DNA from: a virus
Virus record (IMG/VR): IMGVR_UViG_3300017773_000067
Reading direction: 5' to 3' (one strand)
DNA: 33,131 nt
The notes under the pieces were generated by a model. It was not told the DNA's origin. It saw nothing but the letters and a program-made list of their open reading frames with translations, and searched no databases. Numbering within the stretch: position 1 is the first letter of the stretch; every line of letters starts with the position of its first letter. The translations under genes were made by a program, and so were the position numbers. Positions 3,000-32,355 of this stretch are shown piece after piece.

Positions 3000-5000
3000 A
3001 TGGACGATCACAGACTCAAAGCAATAGTCGATCAAGAAATAAACGCAGCAATCGGGTACATAGAGAGCGAAACAACAACACAGAGACGGAAATCTCTGGA
3101 GGCTTATCTCCGAAAACCTTATGGAACGGAAACTGAAGGCAGGAGCAGTATTGTAACTGGTGAAGTTGCAGAGGTAGTTGATGGTGCGTTACCTCACTTG
3201 ATGAGAATATTTACAGCTAGTGATAATGTAGTTAAATTTGAGGCAAAGAATGAAAATGGAGAAAAAACAGCAGAACAAGCAACTCATTTCTGTAATTGGG
3301 TCTTTAATACGCAAAATGATGGATTTGGTATCCTTCACGAAACCTTTAAAACAGCCTTACTCCAAAAAGTCGGAATCTTCAAAGTCTACTACGAAGAAAA
3401 GGACACCACGAAAAAAGAAAGCTACAAGGGTTTAACAGAAAGAGAATTAGCATTATTACTTCAAGATGATACAAGGGAAGTAGTAGAACAATCAAAAGAA
3501 GAAATTCAAGTTGAAGAGTTAGGACCAGATGGAATGGCTTTGCCACCATTGGTTAAGTATGATGTAGTGGTTAAGAAAAAAGAAAGTGTTGGAAAAATAC
3601 AAATAGATTCTTTACCACCAGAAGAGTTTTTAATTAGTAAAACAGCAAAAACAATTGAAGATAGCCCTTTTGTTGCGCATAGAAAACTATTAACTAGAAC
3701 AGATTTAATTTCATTGGGTTATGATGCAGAGGTTGTAAATAATTTGGCAGCCTATGATGAATTATCTTATACACCAGAACGCAATGAAAGATACAGCCAA
3801 GGCGAACAACCTTATGAGATGGATTCCCTTGATAGGGCAATGCAAGAAATAGAAATCTATGAATGTTATATATACGTTGACTATGATAAAGATGATGAAG
3901 CAGAGTTAAGAAGAATAGTATATACGTCAAATGAAATACTAGAAAATGAAGAAACAGATTATGTTCCTTTTCACAGTATTTGCCCTTATCCGTTGCCACA
4001 TAAGTTTTTTGGTCAATCATTGGCAGATAGAGCAATGGATATACAAGAGCAGAAAACAGCAATAACAAGATCAATTTTAGATTCATTATATTTATCATTA
4101 GCACCAAGATTAGGAGCGGTAGAAGGACAGGTTAATTTAGATGATTTATTAAATCTAAGTGCAGGTGGTGTTGTTAGAATGAAAACACCAAATGCAGTCG
4201 TTCCAATGACAGTTCCACAGGTTAGCCAAGGTGCGTTTCCAATATTAGAATATTTAGATAGCGTTCAAGGTAAAAGAACTGGAATTACAGATAGTATGCA
4301 GGGATTAGCACCTGATGTTTTGCAAAATGTAACTGCTGCAGCGATTGCAGCATCTACAAATGCAGCTACAGGTAAAATTGAACTGATAGCTAGAATATTT
4401 GCTGAAACTGGAATAAAGAGTATGTTTCAAGGTATTTTGCAATTATCAGCAAAGTACATGGATAAACCAAGAACAATTAGGTTAGCAGGTAAATATATTG
4501 AAGTTGATCCGAGAGAATGGGAAAATCAATATGATATTAGTATTAATGTTGGATTAGGAACTGGAGATCAAAGACAGCAAATGGCATTACTTCAAATGGT
4601 AATGGCAAAACAAGAAGAGATTATTAAAGGATACGGAACAAGTAATCCTTTAGTTAGTGTAGGTCAGTATCGCAATGCTTTAGAAAAGTTTATTGAGTTA
4701 TCTGGTTACAAAGATGCAAAACAATTCTTTAGAGAAATACCGCCAGAAATAGATCAAGCATTATCGCAACCAAAACCTAAACAACCTGATCCATTAGTAA
4801 GTGCAGCAATGCAACAAGCACAGGCACAATTAATGTTAGATAAACAAAAAGCAGAAGCAGATATTGCTTTGAAGAGGGAAAAAATGATGGCAGATTTACA
4901 ATTAAAACGTGATGAAATGATGGCTGAATTAGAATTAAAGAAACAAGAATTATTAGCTGAAACTCAATTAGATCAACAAAAAGCAATGATGGGTAGATAA
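3000..5000 (+). CDS. Portal protein
   Basis: 666 aa, directly after terL. The ATG is preceded by an in-frame TAA. A long C-terminal coiled-coil tail (QQAQAQLMLDKQKAEADIALKREKMMADLQLKRDEMMAELELKKQELLAE) recalls portal barrel helices. Confidence 0.8.
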   Translation: MDDHRLKAIVDQEINAAIGYIESETTTQRRKSLEAYLRKPYGTETEGRSSIVTGEVAEVVDGALPHLMRIFTASDNVVKFEAKNENGEKTAEQATHFCNWVFNTQNDGFGILHETFKTALLQKVGIFKVYYEEKDTTKKESYKGLTERELALLLQDDTREVVEQSKEEIQVEELGPDGMALPPLVKYDVVVKKKESVGKIQIDSLPPEEFLISKTAKTIEDSPFVAHRKLLTRTDLISLGYDAEVVNNLAAYDELSYTPERNERYSQGEQPYEMDSLDRAMQEIEIYECYIYVDYDKDDEAELRRIVYTSNEILENEETDYVPFHSICPYPLPHKFFGQSLADRAMDIQEQKTAITRSILDSLYLSLAPRLGAVEGQVNLDDLLNLSAGGVVRMKTPNAVVPMTVPQVSQGAFPILEYLDSVQGKRTGITDSMQGLAPDVLQNVTAAAIAASTNAATGKIELIARIFAETGIKSMFQGILQLSAKYMDKPRTIRLAGKYIEVDPREWENQYDISINVGLGTGDQRQQMALLQMVMAKQEEIIKGYGTSNPLVSVGQYRNALEKFIELSGYKDAKQFFREIPPEIDQALSQPKPKQPDPLVSAAMQQAQAQLMLDKQKAEADIALKREKMMADLQLKRDEMMAELELKKQELLAETQLDQQKAMMGR

Positions 5001-5957: not shown

Positions 5958-6719
5958 ATGGCAACAGAATTTGAAGTAGATCAGTTATATCAAGAAGTAT
6001 TAGGTCGTCCTTTTAATGATGGCTTTGATATTTTAAATACTTTTACTACAATGACACCAGAGGAAGTTAAAAATTATTTAACACAATCTCCAGAAGGTCA
6101 GTTTCAAAGTCAATTTCTAAGTGAAGTTGGTAGACCACTAACAGATGCCGATAGGTATTTTTATATGGATCAGGCTCAAACAGGTAATTACGGAGATAGT
6201 AACGCAGATGGCTTAGTGAATATTTACGATATTTTGTATAATATTGCTCAAAGTGATGAAGCACAAAGATTTGATGCACCAGTAGTTGTAGATCAACCTG
6301 TAAATGTTGTAGATCAAACTGCTATTGATGCAGGATTTTCTTCGCCTGATTTTTCTGTACCAGATTTAGTTTCAGCAATCAATCCAAATGCTCCAACAGT
6401 TCCTTTACAAATTACAGGTGGTTCGCAAATTTTACCAACACCATTACCTGCTAACCCACAATTTTATGGAGTTGACCCAATGACAGGATTAACAGGGTTG
6501 TTATCTAGTGAAGCAAATCCAATGTTTAGATCAGGGGTTGCAGGATTTACAGATGTGTTACCTTATCAGTTTGAATTTGGCATACCTGCAGTAACAAGAA
6601 ATGTGCCTTATTTTAGTCAAACTGGAGCAGAAGATTTTGTTGATGTAGCAGAGGCAAAACAAATTGAACAAGCAGAAACAAATAAATCAACTTCAACAAC
6701 TAACCCTAGATTTGCTTAA
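5958..6719 (+). CDS. Hypothetical head-module protein with a DUF4214-like N-terminal motif and one dockerin/EF-hand-like Ca-binding loop
   Basis: QLYQEVLGRPFNDGFD resembles the LYxxxLGRxxDxxG motif of DUF4214. GDSNADGLVNIYDIL fits the DxNxDGxVNxxD loop. Confidence 0.7.
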   Translation: MATEFEVDQLYQEVLGRPFNDGFDILNTFTTMTPEEVKNYLTQSPEGQFQSQFLSEVGRPLTDADRYFYMDQAQTGNYGDSNADGLVNIYDILYNIAQSDEAQRFDAPVVVDQPVNVVDQTAIDAGFSSPDFSVPDLVSAINPNAPTVPLQITGGSQILPTPLPANPQFYGVDPMTGLTGLLSSEANPMFRSGVAGFTDVLPYQFEFGIPAVTRNVPYFSQTGAEDFVDVAEAKQIEQAETNKSTSTTNPRFA

Positions 6720-6958: not shown

Positions 6959-7990
6959 ATGAACGAAACTGTTACCGAAAACAAAGGCATAGAATCGTTG
7001 GGTACAACCCAAGCTGCAGAAAAAATCTATGGTTTAATGAATGACAATCAAGAGACATCTCAGGATCAACCTCAAGAACAGTCAGCAGAAACCAATGAAG
7101 TTGAAACACCTGTAGCAGAGGTTGTTGAAGAAGAAGTTGTAGCAGAAGAGCAACAAGAAACAGAAGCTACTGATGATAATGAAACCATAGAAGAAGAAGC
7201 ACCAGAAGTTCAAACTTTTAGCGTAAAAGCAGAAGGTGAAGAACATCAGGTTACTTTAGATGATTTGGTTAAAAACTATCAGTTAGAAGCCAATGTTAGA
7301 AAAAAAATGGAAACTCTTGCTCATGAAAAGAAAGAAATTGATGGGATTAAAACAGACTTACAATCTAAGGTTAAAGACTTAGATCAAGTTACAAAAACTC
7401 GTCAAGAGTATGATGCAAGACTTCAACAAATAGATCAGTTTTTATCACAGCAAAAGGAAGATTTAACAGGCTTAAAAGAATCCGATCCTGTAGCTTATGT
7501 GACGAAACTTGCAGAACAGCAAGAAAGAGAAAAACAACAACAGCAAATCCATGCCGAGAGAGTGAGGCTTGCCCAAGAGCAACAACTTCAAAATAATAGG
7601 TTAATGGAAGAACGTCTAAAAGTTGAAAGAGTGCGTATAAAAGAGAGAGTTCCAGAACTTGCTAATCCAAAAACAGCATCAAAATATCAAGATGAGTTAA
7701 GAGATTTTGCAAAAACTTATTTTGGATTTACTGATGAAGAAATTCCTGTGGCTGTTTTTCAGCATGATAGTAGGTACGCCGAAATGCTACATGGACTTTA
7801 TCAATTAAAAAAGTTACAAAAAACAATTCCTAGTTCTATTAAAAAGGTTAATAAAGCACCTAAAATGATTAAAGCAGGTGTTAGTCAACCTAGAGATGAT
7901 AAAAGAATTAGGGTAAACAAACTTAAAGACAGAGCAAGACATACTGGAAAAATTAAAGATGTCGCTGCTGTTTTAGAAAAAATTATTTAG
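6959..7990 (+). CDS. Putative scaffolding protein
   Basis: Immediately upstream of the major capsid gene. It has a strongly acidic N-terminus (EEEVVAEEQQETEATDDNETIEEEAPE) followed by long Gln/Glu/Lys-rich coiled-coil-like sequence. Confidence 0.6.
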   Translation: MNETVTENKGIESLGTTQAAEKIYGLMNDNQETSQDQPQEQSAETNEVETPVAEVVEEEVVAEEQQETEATDDNETIEEEAPEVQTFSVKAEGEEHQVTLDDLVKNYQLEANVRKKMETLAHEKKEIDGIKTDLQSKVKDLDQVTKTRQEYDARLQQIDQFLSQQKEDLTGLKESDPVAYVTKLAEQQEREKQQQQIHAERVRLAQEQQLQNNRLMEERLKVERVRIKERVPELANPKTASKYQDELRDFAKTYFGFTDEEIPVAVFQHDSRYAEMLHGLYQLKKLQKTIPSSIKKVNKAPKMIKAGVSQPRDDKRIRVNKLKDRARHTGKIKDVAAVLEKII

Positions 7991-21734: not shown

Positions 21735-22120
21735 ACCAAGTTGATTGGAAAAACTCTGCTTTTTTTGAACAAAGCGAATTTTTATGCAGCCATACAAACC
21801 AAGAAAAAATGGATCAAGGTTTTATAAACACACTAAATGAGTTGCGTGAAAAATTTGATAAACCAATATATATAACAAGTGGATACAGAGATGTTACACA
21901 CCCAATAGAAATTGTTAAAGGAAAAGGTGGTGCGCATACTTCTGGTAAAGCAGTTGATATTAGCGTTTCAAGAAAAGATGCTTATACTCTGTTAAAAATT
22001 GCATTTGAACTTCAGTTTACAGGTATTGGTATAAACCAAAAAGGGAACTCTCGATTTATCCATTTAGATACAATTGAAAGTTCCCCTGATAGACCTAGAC
22101 CTACAATATGGAGTTATTAA
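21731..22120 (+). CDS. Endolysin, peptidase M15 (Zn D-Ala-D-Ala carboxypeptidase-like)
   Basis: SGYR, HTSGKAVD and FIHLD motifs are present. I place the start at ATG 21731 (ATGA overlap with the holin stop) rather than the ORF-track 21641, which would overlap the holin by 94 nt. Confidence 0.8.
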   Translation: MNQVDWKNSAFFEQSEFLCSHTNQEKMDQGFINTLNELREKFDKPIYITSGYRDVTHPIEIVKGKGGAHTSGKAVDISVSRKDAYTLLKIAFELQFTGIGINQKGNSRFIHLDTIESSPDRPRPTIWSY

Positions 22121-23675: not shown

Positions 23676-23704
23676 TTTACAATTGTAATAATAATACTTA
23701 TAAT
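23676..23704 (+). promoter_or_regulatory. Near-consensus sigma70-like promoter on the plus strand with no downstream ORF
   Basis: TTTACA (23676-23681), a 17-nt spacer, and TATAAT (23699-23704). It points into a 120-bp ORF-free stretch that ends at the 23793-23821 hairpin. Confidence 0.5.
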
Positions 23705-23710
23705 AAGTTA

Positions 23711-23826
23711 TAGTCAAAAAGCGTGCTTAAAAAACTTAAACAAGAAAAATACATCTTGGGAATATTTTGGAACCACAAACATAAAAAAAGTCAAGGTAAA
23801 TAAATCAGCATTATTTACCTTTTTTA
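23711..23826 (+). ncRNA. Candidate ~115-nt phage sRNA (predicted from promoter plus terminator only)
   Basis: Bounded by the plus-strand promoter above and an 11-bp hairpin followed by a T-run. The stretch contains no ATG. Confidence 0.3.
23793..23821. terminator. Bidirectional rho-independent terminator
   Basis: A perfect 11-bp stem aaggtaaataa/ttatttacctt has a 7-nt loop (atcagca). It is followed by TTTT on the plus strand and by gacTTTTTTT on the minus strand. It sits immediately downstream of the stop of 23824..24075 (-). Confidence 0.7.
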
Positions 23827-27386: not shown

Positions 27387-27669
27387 AAATAAAAAATTAT
27401 TAAAGTTAGCTAACAAATGTCCATATTGTATGGCGTGTGGTGCAGATAACAATAATGATATTGTTGCAGCACATTTAAATTTTGACAAATCAAAAGGAAT
27501 GGGAACAAAATGCCATGATTATTTAATTGCTTATTTGTGTTGGAAATGCCATTTGTTAATTGATGAGGGTTATAGTTTAACGCCAGAAGATAAAAAAGAA
27601 TTAAGTCAAAGAGCATTTTTAAAAACCTTAAACTGGTTGTTTACAGAAAATCATTTGACGGTAAAATGA
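27370..27669 (+). CDS. YbcO/DUF1364-family putative nuclease
   Basis: CPYCMACGADNNNDIVAAHLNF..GMGTKCHDYLIAYLCWKCHLLIDEG parallels E. coli DLP12 YbcO (CQVRIPGVCNGNPETSVLAHIR..GTGTKPPDLIATIACSACHDEIDRR), including the Cys/His ligands. Confidence 0.7.
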   Translation: MINKYRNKKLLKLANKCPYCMACGADNNNDIVAAHLNFDKSKGMGTKCHDYLIAYLCWKCHLLIDEGYSLTPEDKKELSQRAFLKTLNWLFTENHLTVK

Positions 27670-28013
27670 ACATTGAATTTAGATTATTTAATTGGGCAAT
27701 TTATTATTCAATGCTTGATGATGGAAGACCAATCGTTAAAAAACATTGTGGAAGTGCAGAGCATAATTTTAAAGGTGAGGTTGGTGAAGTTTTTGATGAT
27801 GAAGATAAGTTTATCGAGCCAGATAAATTTGATGCAGAAAAACTAGAAAAAAAAATTATTAAATTAAAAAAAAAAGATAGGAGGTTAATTAAATTCAAAT
27901 ACATTTTGTTTCCACAACATTCAGATAATTTTGTTGCTAATAAATTAAGAATTTCTGAAGAAAAATTTAAAAATGATTTAAGGTCTATTAAATATCAACT
28001 AGAGAGGAAATGA
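27666..28013 (+). CDS. Hypothetical protein, candidate late-gene regulator (sigma region-4/Q-like C-terminus)
   Basis: The C-terminal KKDRRLIKFKYILFPQHSDNFVANKLRISEEKFKNDLRSIKYQL resembles a sigma70 region-4-type HTH. Its position after ninB/ybcO mirrors Q in lambdoid nin regions. Confidence 0.3.
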   Translation: MNIEFRLFNWAIYYSMLDDGRPIVKKHCGSAEHNFKGEVGEVFDDEDKFIEPDKFDAEKLEKKIIKLKKKDRRLIKFKYILFPQHSDNFVANKLRISEEKFKNDLRSIKYQLERK

Positions 28014-29560: not shown

Positions 29561-29845
29561 ATGGAAGACTATATCGTTTATAGAAGAGTTACTGAAATTC
29601 AGGGTACTGTAATAAAAGCAAAAAGTATTGAAGATGCAAACAAGAAACTTGCAAAAATTAATGCTGACTTCAACAAAAATCCTTTGGATGCTCCACTAGA
29701 AAACAGCTTGGATTGTGACTTTGAGTTTATTACTTATTTAGATGACCAAACATATTTGCCAAAAAAAACTATACGAGTCGAAGATGCCAAAGAAGAATTA
29801 AGGCCATTTGGTCTTAAGCACAAACGATATAGAAAAAGAAAATAA
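29561..29845 (+). CDS. Hypothetical small protein (94 aa)
   Basis: ORF with AAAGGTAATGAATTATG upstream and a basic C-terminus. Confidence 0.6.
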   Translation: MEDYIVYRRVTEIQGTVIKAKSIEDANKKLAKINADFNKNPLDAPLENSLDCDFEFITYLDDQTYLPKKTIRVEDAKEELRPFGLKHKRYRKRK

Positions 29846-29881
29846 TTAATCTATCAATCATTAACAGGGGTAATAGAAAAA

Positions 29882-30295
29882 ATGACAACTTTAACTGATG
29901 AGGAAATTTTAGCGTTAAAAAAACCAAAAAATAGTTTAACTGAAAATGATCATGCTGTTATTGATGGGTTTTTAAATTATTTTTTACAAAACCTTGAGGT
30001 TTGGTTAGCAGTACAATCAATAACTAAGCAAATGGTTTTTAAAGGTGTTAAGAAAAGTGGCATTGTTGTAGTTTTTGGAAAAATCAGATATGACCACACC
30101 ATAAAAACAAAATCTGATAAATTTAAATTAAGTAATAATTATATGCCTTTTTACGCAAAGGCATTTGCTGAAAAATACCCAAATTTTGCTTTTATTTTTG
30201 ATTATAAAAAAAGTAGAGCAGAATGTGTTGATTATGATTTACTATTTAATTATTTATCTGAAAAAAATAATAATAAAAAGGAAAGTTATGTTTAA
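29882..30295 (+). CDS. Hypothetical protein (137 aa)
   Basis: ORF in the operon. No motif recognised. Confidence 0.65.
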   Translation: MTTLTDEEILALKKPKNSLTENDHAVIDGFLNYFLQNLEVWLAVQSITKQMVFKGVKKSGIVVVFGKIRYDHTIKTKSDKFKLSNNYMPFYAKAFAEKYPNFAFIFDYKKSRAECVDYDLLFNYLSEKNNNKKESYV

Positions 30296-30386
30296 ATTAA
30301 TTGTATGTACAACTTTAACTTTTTTTTGGTTAGACTATGTTTATATAGTTTATGGTTTAAATTTGGATTATTTTACAGGTTTATAA
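30288..30386 (+). CDS. Possible 32-aa membrane mini-protein
   Basis: MFKLIVCTTLTFFWLDYVYIVYGLNLDYFTGL. The ATG at 30288 overlaps the upstream stop (ATGTTTAA). The longer 30165 ORF-track version overlaps the preceding gene and is rejected. Confidence 0.3.
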   Translation: MFKLIVCTTLTFFWLDYVYIVYGLNLDYFTGL

Positions 30387-30412
30387 AAAAATAGTTGTAA
30401 TTAATTTTTTTT

Positions 30413-30523
30413 GGTGGTAAAGTGGAGGTGGGTTACTTTGTCCAGTCGCTAGTAACCTCCCTTTACACACCTCAGGGCAATCTCAGTTTACTTTCCTTGT
30501 TCTTTGATTGCCCACCCTTTTTT
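30413..30523 (+). promoter_or_regulatory. GC-rich structured noncoding element (candidate cis-regulatory leader, attenuator or ncRNA)
   Basis: Hairpin A is ggttact/agtaacc (30431-30437 / 30451-30457), extendable via G-U and two G-C pairs. Hairpin B is gggcaatc/gattgccc (30475-30482 / 30506-30513), followed by accc and T6 (30518-30523). An alternative pairing joins ggtggg (30427-30432) to cccacc (30511-30516). GAGG and then ATG 30537 follow. Confidence 0.4.
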
Positions 30524-30536
30524 GAGGAAAAAAATT

Positions 30537-30665
30537 ATGGCAGGAAGATCAAAAGGTGGTGCAACAGGAGGCAAGAAAAAAGGCAGTTCAGTTGCAAAAC
30601 CATCATCAATGGCTCAAAGAATGGCAAAACTCAGAAGCATGAAAAAGCAAAAAAAACGAGCATAG
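30537..30665 (+). CDS. Small highly basic protein (42 aa)
   Basis: Hand translation gives MAGRSKGGATGGKKKGSSVAKPSSMAQRMAKLRSMKKQKKRA. A GAGG lies 9 nt upstream, and the TAG stop directly abuts the next ATG. Confidence 0.5.
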   Translation: MAGRSKGGATGGKKKGSSVAKPSSMAQRMAKLRSMKKQKKRA

Positions 30666-31358
30666 ATGCCGTTTTTAACCTCTGCAATCCCATACTTTAA
30701 ATGTTGGGTACGCAAAGAATTTACTCATAATCACGAAAAATATACTGGAGAATTCATACATGGATTAGCCACAGCAGTTACTTGTATTCCTGATAGATCA
30801 TTAAGTTTTCAAATAATTTTTACAGGTTACGAGGTTGACGATAATAAAAAACCCAATGTTCATGGTGGTGCAATGTGGGCAAGAATGCCTATTCAAGCAC
30901 TAGTAGGAGATATACCTCTGGAAGAGTGGGCAGAAAGAATGCCTAGCCACTTAGTTCAACCTTGGGATTGTAGTAGCAGAACACATTGTGTATTTGAAAT
31001 ACCAAGAGCAAAACCATCTCCTTGGTTAGCAAAAATTGATGGTAATTTTTTTAAAGCAAAATATTTATTGAGTGTGGATTATTCAGACAGTTCAGTAGCT
31101 GATGATCCTGCACAGCATAAACAATCACATATTCTTGTTTTGACTGATGGGAAATGGAAAGGAAATATAGTGGCTTTGCCAAATAACAGGGTTAGGGTTT
31201 CATCTCCTGCATATTGGAATTTAGGAGAGGGTGCGCCAGATTTTAGACCAAGTCAACATATACATTGTGCCGAAGAGGATTATAGTTACTTAAATGCAGA
31301 ATATACATTCAATAATATCTACGTTGGAAAAACAAATGCTAAAAAGAAAAGAAGTTGA
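30666..31358 (+). CDS. Hypothetical protein (230 aa), compositionally atypical (Trp/His/Pro/Cys-rich, few Lys)
   Basis: Long ORF. I recognised no family. Confidence 0.75.
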   Translation: MPFLTSAIPYFKCWVRKEFTHNHEKYTGEFIHGLATAVTCIPDRSLSFQIIFTGYEVDDNKKPNVHGGAMWARMPIQALVGDIPLEEWAERMPSHLVQPWDCSSRTHCVFEIPRAKPSPWLAKIDGNFFKAKYLLSVDYSDSSVADDPAQHKQSHILVLTDGKWKGNIVALPNNRVRVSSPAYWNLGEGAPDFRPSQHIHCAEEDYSYLNAEYTFNNIYVGKTNAKKKRS

Positions 31359-31362
31359 ATCA

Positions 31363-31473
31363 ATGCAAGAATTTATCAATAGACCTAAACCCAAGCAAGG
31401 CAGGGCAATTGATAAAAAGGTTGAGTATGGTCCTAAATTAAGTATGAAAAATGGCAAAAAAACCAAAAAGTAA
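31363..31473 (+). CDS. Possible basic mini-protein (36 aa)
   Basis: Hand translation gives MQEFINRPKPKQGRAIDKKVEYGPKLSMKNGKKTKK. It fills most of the 184-nt gap. A second overlapping basic mini-ORF (31451..31546, 31 aa) is an alternative. Confidence 0.3.
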   Translation: MQEFINRPKPKQGRAIDKKVEYGPKLSMKNGKKTKK

Positions 31474-31542
31474 AGTTAATCAAGCAGGTAAACAGTTTGT
31501 TAAACAACCAAAAAAAATAGCAAAAAAAGTGAAAAAATTTAT

Positions 31543-32355
31543 TTGAGTGATCCATTTAAAATTATAGAACCAAGCGTTATTAGTTTTTCTGGTGGCAGAA
31601 CATCAGCCTATATGCTTTATCGGATATTGCAGTCAAACAAAAATACTTTGCCAGAAAATAGCGTTTGTGTTTTTGCAAATACAGGCAAAGAGATGGAGCA
31701 AACTTTGGAGTTTGTCAGGGATTGCTCTGAGCATTGGAAAGTTAAAATTTATTGGGTTGAGTATAGTTCAGACAATTTAGGTTATAAAAAAGTAAATTTT
31801 AAAAGTGCTAGTAGAAATGGTGAGCCTTTTGAGGCTTTGATAAAAAAAAGAAAATATATTCCAAATAAAATAATGAGAAATTGCACAATAGAGTTAAAAA
31901 TTAGACCAATACACAAATTAGTTAAAAAAGAACTTTGGCAAGGAAAAGGTTTATCTCACAATGAAAATATGGATTTGATGGGAATAAGAGCAGATGAAAT
32001 GAGAAGAGCAGCAAAAGTAGACAGAGAGAGAGTGCCTTTAGTAAATGCTGGGGTTACAAAACATCATGTTGCGAGTTTTTGGAAAAATAATTCTTTTGAT
32101 TTAAAGTTGCCAAACATTAATGGAGAAACAATTCATGGCAATTGTGATTTATGTTTTTTAAAAGCAAATGGGAAAATACAATCTTTAATTAGAGAAAAAC
32201 CAGAACGTGCAGATTGGTGGATTCAACAGGAAACATTTGTAAAGGATCAGTTCGACAGGTTTGGTATGAGTTACAAGAGAAGAAAAGAGGCAGCCATTAA
32301 TCAAACTGAAATGTTTGAGTTTGACGATTCAATACCTTGTTATTGTGGTGATTAA
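31543..32355 (+). CDS. PAPS-reductase-family PP-loop ATP pyrophosphatase (TTG start)
   Basis: A PP-loop SFSGGRTSAYM lies at residues 14-24. The C-terminus has Cys clusters (HGNCDLCFLK, IPCYCGD). TTG is the only plausible start upstream of the PP-loop, because an in-frame TAA lies at 31501. Confidence 0.8.
   Translation: MSDPFKIIEPSVISFSGGRTSAYMLYRILQSNKNTLPENSVCVFANTGKEMEQTLEFVRDCSEHWKVKIYWVEYSSDNLGYKKVNFKSASRNGEPFEALIKKRKYIPNKIMRNCTIELKIRPIHKLVKKELWQGKGLSHNENMDLMGIRADEMRRAAKVDRERVPLVNAGVTKHHVASFWKNNSFDLKLPNINGETIHGNCDLCFLKANGKIQSLIREKPERADWWIQQETFVKDQFDRFGMSYKRRKEAAINQTEMFEFDDSIPCYCGD

Follow-up and report, generated by a model that had tools for sequence, protein, structure and literature searches.

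A structured noncoding gap lies at the head of the late block

The window analyzed here (the whole stretch of viral DNA, IMG/VR record IMGVR_UViG_3300017773_000067, 33,131 nucleotides [nt] long) carries a gap at positions 30387 to 30536, between a 32-amino-acid (aa) hydrophobic open reading frame (ORF; 30288 to 30386) and a 42-aa basic ORF (30537 to 30665). All genes from 30537 to the end of the window, and all those from 133 to 22120, lie on the plus strand. The two ends of the window are contiguous, as confirmed by the related contigs L168 (the whole contig of the L002/L081 lineage) and L003, which run from the corresponding element into terS, terL, and portal. The element and these three genes are on the same strand in the window, L168, and L003, and this synteny places the element at the head of the late block. 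The block includes a 230-aa phrog_3704 protein, a PAPS-reductase-like protein, a DUF6321 protein, a ParB-methyltransferase, the portal, and structural proteins, and it ends with the holin and endolysin. Upstream of the gap, the early right arm is lambdoid, with a cro-like gene, a resolvase, a replication protein, NinB, a YbcO-like gene, and the gene for a 115-aa protein; the ybcO-rusA-quuD order of DLP12 matches it up to quuD.

In most of ~330 relatives, the 230-aa phrog_3704 gene comes after a small ORF rich in Gly, Lys, and Arg (30537 to 30665 in the window; most loci from L004 to L160), and in other lineages this ORF contains repeated KKKGYARGG-like units. The partner of this small basic ORF is probably the 230-aa protein, not the leader described below. 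The 230-aa protein itself (30666 to 31358) has distant cyanophage and pelagiphage homologues annotated as "ferredoxin," "PurM," or hypothetical; the first two names look unreliable because no Pfam domain was found. Structured sites were also seen elsewhere in the window. At 23676 to 23826, a promoter-like TTTACA-17-TATAAT is followed by a hairpin, with T-runs on both strands (23820 on the plus strand and 23789 on the minus strand). At ~21990 to 22045 on the minus strand, a strong hairpin (-18 kcal/mol) followed by a T5 run lies inside the endolysin gene at its 3' end, where this gene and the leftward genes converge.

The predicted parts of the gap, which together we call the cassette, are listed here with the first gene behind it and the candidate regulator.

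27666 to 28013, plus strand: gene for the 115-aa protein in the Q position, candidate regulator of the cassette; follows NinB and the YbcO-like gene
30395 to 30400, plus strand: predicted -35 hexamer TTGTAA; the TTG never varies, and 17 nt (18 in L172) separate the two hexamers in every lineage, with unrelated spacer sequences
30418 to 30423, plus strand: predicted -10 hexamer TAAAGT, preceded by TGg (extended -10-like); equivalents elsewhere are TAAAAT, TACAAT, TATAAT, and CAAAAT
30430 to 30458, plus strand: hairpin 1, the predicted 5'-terminal stem-loop; ggttact/agtaacc extends to an 8-bp stem (30430 to 30437 with 30451 to 30458)
30459 to 30474, plus strand: single-stranded pyrimidine-rich linker with the conserved CCTTTACA motif at 30460 to 30467
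30475 to 30513, plus strand: predicted terminator hairpin gggcaatc/gattgccc; 8-bp stem (30475 to 30482 with 30506 to 30513), 23-nt loop, -14.2 kcal/mol
30514 to 30523, plus strand: ACCC spacer and U6 tract (30518 to 30523); other lineages have U8 to U9 directly after the stem
30524 to 30527, plus strand: Shine-Dalgarno sequence GAGG, 9 nt before the ATG at 30537; the ribosome-binding site (RBS) lies 0 to 8 nt past the U tract in all lineages
30427 to 30432 and 30511 to 30516: complementary pair ggtggg/cccacc, found by sequence inspection
30537 to 30665, plus strand: 42-aa basic ORF, the first gene behind the cassette; 63 to 66% identity in L172, L175, and L168

The gap is noncoding, folds strongly, and contains a promoter

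The preliminary description had pictured a GC-rich noncoding island in which two hairpins, a T6 run, and the GGTGGG/CCCACC complementarity, followed by GAGG-N9-ATG, formed a switch of riboswitch or attenuator type. Each of these sequence features is present where it had been placed, and the gap is indeed noncoding. The 92-aa frame at 30422 to 30700, whose conservation would have spoken for a protein, is not conserved over the gap; it finds matches only where it overlaps the 42-aa ORF, at 40 to 47% identity, compared with 63 to 66% in the 42-aa frame. The description of the region as GC rich applies to the core (30430 to 30523), which stands out at 44.7% G+C, but less so to the gap as a whole, whose G+C content is a modest 37.3% against a window mean of 32.8% (standard deviation, 5.7), with 23% of 150-nt windows being equally rich. 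A 154-nt stretch folds at -46.2 kcal/mol, compared with -32.0 ± 3.9 kcal/mol for shuffled sequences (z = -3.64), and the predicted transcript (30430 to 30525) also folds more stably than its shuffles (z = -2.93). As the preliminary description had supposed, the region resembles no known RNA family: an Rfam scan returned no match at the gathering threshold or at E ≤ 10 except for chance eukaryotic hits, neither the window nor five related loci matched an Rfam covariance model at the gathering threshold, and ARAGORN found no tRNA.

A promoter inside the gap had been overlooked, and its presence changes the reading of the locus to that of a promoter-proximal terminator. The predicted promoter, TTGTAA-17-TAAAGT, agrees with the consensus at 8 of 12 positions, and the pattern TTGnnA-17-TAnAnT occurs nowhere else in the 290 nt that precede the 230-aa gene, though a simple promoter scan did not pick it up. 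From the positions of its -35 and -10 hexamers (30395 to 30423), transcription is predicted to start at ~30430, the first base of hairpin 1. The terminator that follows is the least canonical among the lineages compared below, because of its 23-nt loop and the 4-nt ACCC spacer before U6.

The same layout recurs in at least seven phage lineages

DNA-level searches found no relatives of the cassette. A blastn search of the element against 80 related loci returned nothing, a search of cultured phages with positions 29800 to 31600 gave no match, and a pattern search of IMG/VR for the linker motif plus a T-run recovered just the L002 contig and chance coding matches. Homologous cassettes were therefore sought by position and architecture, both upstream of homologues of the 230-aa gene (in IMG/VR and metagenomes) and downstream of homologues of the 115-aa gene.

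At least seven lineages have the layout: the window, L002/L081, L003/L082/L084, L172, L173/L174, L175, and a freshwater group (L254, L258, L259, L263, and L267, plus the variants L243 and L249). The order common to them is TTGnnn-17-TAnnnT (with a spacer of 18 in L172), a hairpin, a linker, a terminator hairpin, U6 to U9, an RBS, and a small basic ORF. As judged by sequence, a sigma70-type promoter, TTG-17/18-TAnnnT, is thus kept directly upstream of the late operon in all lineages. The first paired base of hairpin 1 lies 6 to 8 nt past the -10 element in 10 of 10 sequences compared, the pyrimidine-rich linker varies from 15 to 36 nt, and an intrinsic terminator (hairpin plus U6 to U9) follows 70 to 100 nt past the -10 element in all lineages. 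Most lineages have strong canonical terminators with 7- to 12-bp stems and U8 to U9; the copy in the window is the weakest. In three relatives (L208, L230, and L238), the Q-like gene is present and the promoter and hairpin 1 remain, but the linker motif and the terminator are missing together.

The flanks of the cassette promoter differ between lineages. In L175, an A/T-rich hairpin with T9 (~7360 to 7396) lies ~60 nt upstream of the promoter, so that terminators flank it on both sides; this upstream terminator implies that the downstream one is not simply the end of the early operon. In L172, tandem ~9-nt units (CCAAGTTGA-like; 6391 to 6450) lie just upstream of a consensus cassette promoter and may be regulator binding sites. 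The smallest version is found in L243 (~4466 to 4530), where a minimal cassette ~120 nt past the Q-like gene consists of the promoter, one 5-bp hairpin, U8, and the first gene. A leader reduced to one hairpin and U8 fits a factor that is loaded at the promoter, not on an RNA element of the leader.

Pairing is conserved between lineages while sequence is not

The sequences of the spacer, hairpin 1, and the terminator stems are unrelated between lineages, and pairing is nevertheless kept. Covariation, which the preliminary description had named as a check, was thus found in the homologues: the stems stay paired between lineages in spite of their unrelated sequences, and compensatory changes occur within lineages. 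From L003 to L082/L084, a G:C pair of hairpin 1 becomes A:U; from L173 to L174, a G:C pair becomes G:U, a change that keeps the RNA helix and breaks the DNA palindrome; and from L002 to L081, merely the loop-closing pair is opened. These pairs were tabulated lineage by lineage with a script. MAFFT and RNAalifold, applied to the 10 leaders, yielded no predicted pairs, since stems this different in sequence cannot be aligned.

How often such an arrangement arises by chance was gauged with a detector that required a promoter, a 5' hairpin, a terminator with T6, and an RBS-ATG jointly. Applied to 1.5 Mb of loci together with the window, it returned 10 distinct cassettes on the gene strand, and the single hit in the window was at the gap. 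On the opposite strand, its single hit was the L001 contig, which is in reverse orientation, so that only true cassettes were found in ~3 Mb. Taken together, these comparisons establish a predicted promoter-hairpin-linker-terminator-RBS architecture, conserved with covariation, at the head of the late block. The preliminary description's claim of a structured leader with a terminator directly before the operon's RBS is thereby supported, with a structure that is conserved through covariation in the homologues.

The same comparisons argue against the other half of that claim, namely, that GGTGGG:CCCACC and the terminator hairpin are rival pairings of a switch that senses a ligand or factor. The two segments are genuinely complementary, to a degree slightly beyond that of shuffled sequences in the window (P ~0.03), and L003, L084, and L173 show comparable complementarity, likewise above that of shuffles, between the 5' region and the terminator (16 nt past the -10 element with the 3' flank of the terminator). 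However, the pairing is absent from L002, L172, and L175, which are the window's nearest relatives, and forcing it in the window yields -21.7 kcal/mol compared with a minimum free energy (MFE) of -42.7 kcal/mol, a cost of 21 kcal/mol. About half or more of GGTGGG lies upstream of the predicted start, and the segment would pair with the 3' arm of the terminator rather than the 5' arm, which is kinetically unfavorable. Moreover, the leader sequences are unrelated between lineages, match no Rfam family, and share no aptamer-like core; hairpin 1 and the terminator stems of one lineage are wholly unlike those of another in sequence and size, and the L243 version is a single hairpin with U8. With its alternative pairing missing from the closest relatives, energetically poor, and unaccompanied by an aptamer-like core, a riboswitch or mutually exclusive pairing switch is, in our estimation, extremely unlikely.

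A short linker motif is shared by all lineages

In contrast to the stems, part of the linker is conserved: a YCUUYA core is found just 5' of the terminator in every lineage, distant freshwater relatives included. Its variants are CCUUUACA in the window and L002, UCUUUACU in L172, UUCUUUACA in L254, CUCUUUCA in L175, and UCCUUCA in L003 and L173. A second conserved segment is confined to two lineages, as the terminator-loop sequence UUUACU..CCUUGUU is shared by the window (30483 to 30505) and L172 (6569 to 6583), whose stems share no sequence. Conservation of a loop while the stems differ is the opposite of what neutral drift would produce.

Certain roles for the motif were tried and rejected. 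Several MFE folds show the C/U-rich motif sequestering the RBS, but shuffled leaders leave the RBS unpaired with no higher probability. Inspection likewise found no -10 element at the right distance, in any lineage, for the TTTACA in the linker or loop to serve as the -35 element of an internal promoter.

One reading of these conserved segments is that the main product of the cassette is the terminated RNA of ~90 nt, which would be a phage small RNA (sRNA) with Shine-Dalgarno-like sequences as its targets in trans; such a role would be compatible with a termination checkpoint at the same site. The predicted RNA has the classical shape of an sRNA, with a 5' hairpin, a single-stranded pyrimidine seed, and a terminator with a U tail. 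The persistence of the linker motif across all lineages and the terminator loop shared by the window and L172 despite different stems both fit this reading, for which StxS of Stx phages offers a precedent (PMC7547250). On the other hand, no phage translation-initiation region pairs with the linker or loop better than shuffled seeds do, and the L243 RNA is reduced to ~25 nt. We therefore regard the sRNA reading as quite unlikely to describe the main function.

The linker motif also invites comparison with N/nut- or rrn-type RNA antitermination, in which hairpin 1 would be boxB, YCUUUACA would be a boxA bound by NusB/NusE, and the basic ORF might be an N-like factor. The order of a hairpin followed by a C/U-rich box resembles that of rrn leaders, the first gene does encode a very basic 42-aa protein, and the motif may resemble the boxA core (CUCUUUA). 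Several observations point the other way: the loops of hairpin 1 are not conserved, the type-B lineages have UCCUUCA alone, L243 has no separate hairpin and box, and most of the ~330 loci that have no cassette nevertheless carry the basic ORF with the 230-aa gene. Antitermination of this type thus seems very unlikely.

The 115-aa protein in the Q position is a probable remote Q82/QuuD relative

A gene for the 115-aa protein is present 0.3 to 3.2 kb upstream of the cassette in all cassette lineages with enough flank and in no cassette-free locus around the 230-aa gene. The protein has 96 relatives among 1.8 billion representative sequences, and a protein search of cultured phages with it gave no match. 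Of 87 aligned relatives, 52 match phrog_19609 (unknown function), 14 match phrog_79 ("antitermination protein Q-like"), 4 match PF06530, and 4 match Sigma70_r4_2; the window's own protein is below the Pfam thresholds, and its PHROGs matches are weak. A profile comparison by hhalign with Escherichia coli QuuD gave a probability of 51% and an E value of 1.5e-4, with a collinear alignment over 109 columns.

The AlphaFold model (pLDDT, 86) consists of an N-terminal helix, a disordered linker, and a four-helix domain. This domain superposes on sigma region 4 at 1.6 to 2.0 Å, with a profile match to 3hug at 5.5e-6; comparison of the fold with the solved Q21 and Q-lambda structures gave no match. The N-terminal helix carries a conserved L.NWA.W motif, and an HC.S.EH.Y motif lies in the disordered linker. 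We conclude that the 115-aa protein is probably a remote relative of the Q82/QuuD antiterminators, with a predicted sigma region-4 fold.

When the association was examined from the side of the protein, 59 of the 100 evaluable loci with a Q-like gene had no cassette by the detector, which means that the 115-aa protein could be an activator rather than an antiterminator.

Model for late transcription

We propose that transcription of the late operon passes through a promoter-proximal termination checkpoint in the gap, similar in kind to lambda PR'-tR', with the Q-like protein as the candidate factor, and consider this reading somewhat more probable than not. A host sigma70-type promoter (30395 to 30423) would start an RNA at ~30430, the first bases of which would fold into the 5'-terminal hairpin, to be followed by the short pyrimidine-rich single-stranded tract. 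The intrinsic terminator (30475 to 30523), which abuts the RBS of the first gene of the late block, would by default stop polymerase arriving both from the cassette promoter and from the upstream early operon, so that an RNA of ~90 nt would be released. Expression of ~25 kb of co-directional genes (the basic ORF, the 230-aa gene, terS, terL, portal, the tail genes, holin, and endolysin) would then need read-through, most likely by polymerase that the 115-aa Q-like protein has modified at the promoter or close to it, as in lambda PR'-tR'/Q. The general idea that a terminator-bearing leader gates the operon is supported; where transcription starts, that it terminates in vivo, and what the Q-like protein does are parts of the model that we infer.

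A checkpoint is favored over a plain end-of-operon terminator because the order of promoter and then terminator is conserved, because L175 has an additional terminator upstream of the promoter, and because the leader of L243 is minimal. Inspection of six lineages found no shared -10-like pause element in the first 30 nt. The weak terminator of the window, the remoteness of the Q assignment, the existence of terminator-less relatives, and the 59 of 100 loci mentioned above leave room for an activator role or for a leaky terminator that is not regulated at all.

According to the latter explanation, the promoter and the 5' hairpin, as an mRNA stabilizer, drive the operon, and the terminator hairpin and U-run do no more than damp transcription coming from this promoter and from the early operon, with no dedicated factor involved. 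The window's hairpin is noncanonical and probably inefficient, relatives with the promoter and no terminator exist, and neither a pause element nor a Q-binding element was recognized; these observations speak for leakage. Conversely, with the strong canonical terminators that directly follow a good promoter in most lineages, the greater part of the transcripts of an essential 25-kb operon would be wasted; the conserved linker motif comes and goes jointly with the terminator; and the Q-like gene co-occurs with the cassette. On balance, we consider unregulated leakage unlikely.

A further reading would make the cassette the target of a new antitermination system, in which a protein built from a helix, a linker, and a sigma region-4 domain is loaded via the YCUUUACA leader box and the ~90-nt RNA doubles as a phage sRNA with anti-Shine-Dalgarno-like seeds. 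The box could act on DNA, as the -35-like TTTACA present in several lineages, or as a boxA-like RNA site; in the former case, the TTTACA of the linker might be a likeness of the -35 element that a sigma region-4 domain could bind. This combination is speculative, and we rate it as rather improbable.

Comparison with known systems

Constitutive transcripts from PR' that are terminated at tR' to give short RNAs have been described for lambda, 21, 82, phi80, P22, and Stx phages (PMC7547250). The cassette shares with lambda PR'-qut-tR' a promoter with an intrinsic terminator within ~100 nt, its place at the head of a long co-directional late operon and downstream of a nin-like region with a small regulator gene in the Q position, and, as predicted, a short terminated RNA as the default product (6S RNA in lambda). 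The differences are that the leader of these cassettes is 70 to 95 nt, compared with 194 nt in lambda; that the hairpin starts at +1 and the terminator abuts the RBS of the first gene; that no Q-binding or sigma-dependent pause element was recognized in the cassette; and that the first genes behind it are not the lysis genes, which lie at the far end, while the regulator is only remotely Q-like. The regulator resembles Q82/QuuD (PF06530, phrog_79) in its gene position after ybcO/ninB, an N-terminal L..W..W motif, and a collinear profile alignment, whereas it differs in that the window protein is below threshold, most relatives fall in phrog_19609, and the predicted structure combines a helix and a disordered linker with a sigma region-4 domain.

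In Stx phages, the short terminated RNA of the late promoter acts as an sRNA, StxS (PMC7547250). The predicted RNA of the cassette is like StxS in being a short RNA released at a promoter-proximal terminator of a late promoter that, in the Stx case, is controlled by antitermination (PMC7547250). In contrast, StxS arises from a 258-nt precursor through cleavage by RNase E, and its binding to Hfq and its targets are proven (PMC7547250), whereas the cassette RNA is a prediction from sequence.

The leader also resembles N/nut and the rrn boxB-boxA regions, since it has a hairpin followed by a short conserved C/U-rich box in a promoter-proximal position. It differs from them in that the hairpin loop is not conserved, the box is loosely boxA-like, no N homologue was identified, and the terminator follows immediately rather than far downstream. 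With riboswitches and attenuators the cassette shares a terminator in the 5' leader, but not a conserved ligand-binding core, a conserved alternative pairing, or an Rfam match. We read the cassette as a fresh example of the already known lambda-type "stop unless released" layout and not as a riboswitch.

These findings locate a proposed early/late transcription switch in a group of uncultured marine and freshwater phages whose nearest cultured relatives, by portal similarity, are phages of Methylophilales and SAR11-type hosts. To our knowledge, no regulatory circuitry has been described for these relatives. Along with the cassette comes a candidate family of regulators, ~100 representative sequences that for the most part lack a functional assignment (phrog_19609). 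Since the cassette spans ~150 nt and the regulator is a protein of 115 aa, the idea is directly testable. If the 115-aa protein acts at the cassette, Q-type control would also cover a highly divergent family whose fold is that of sigma region 4.
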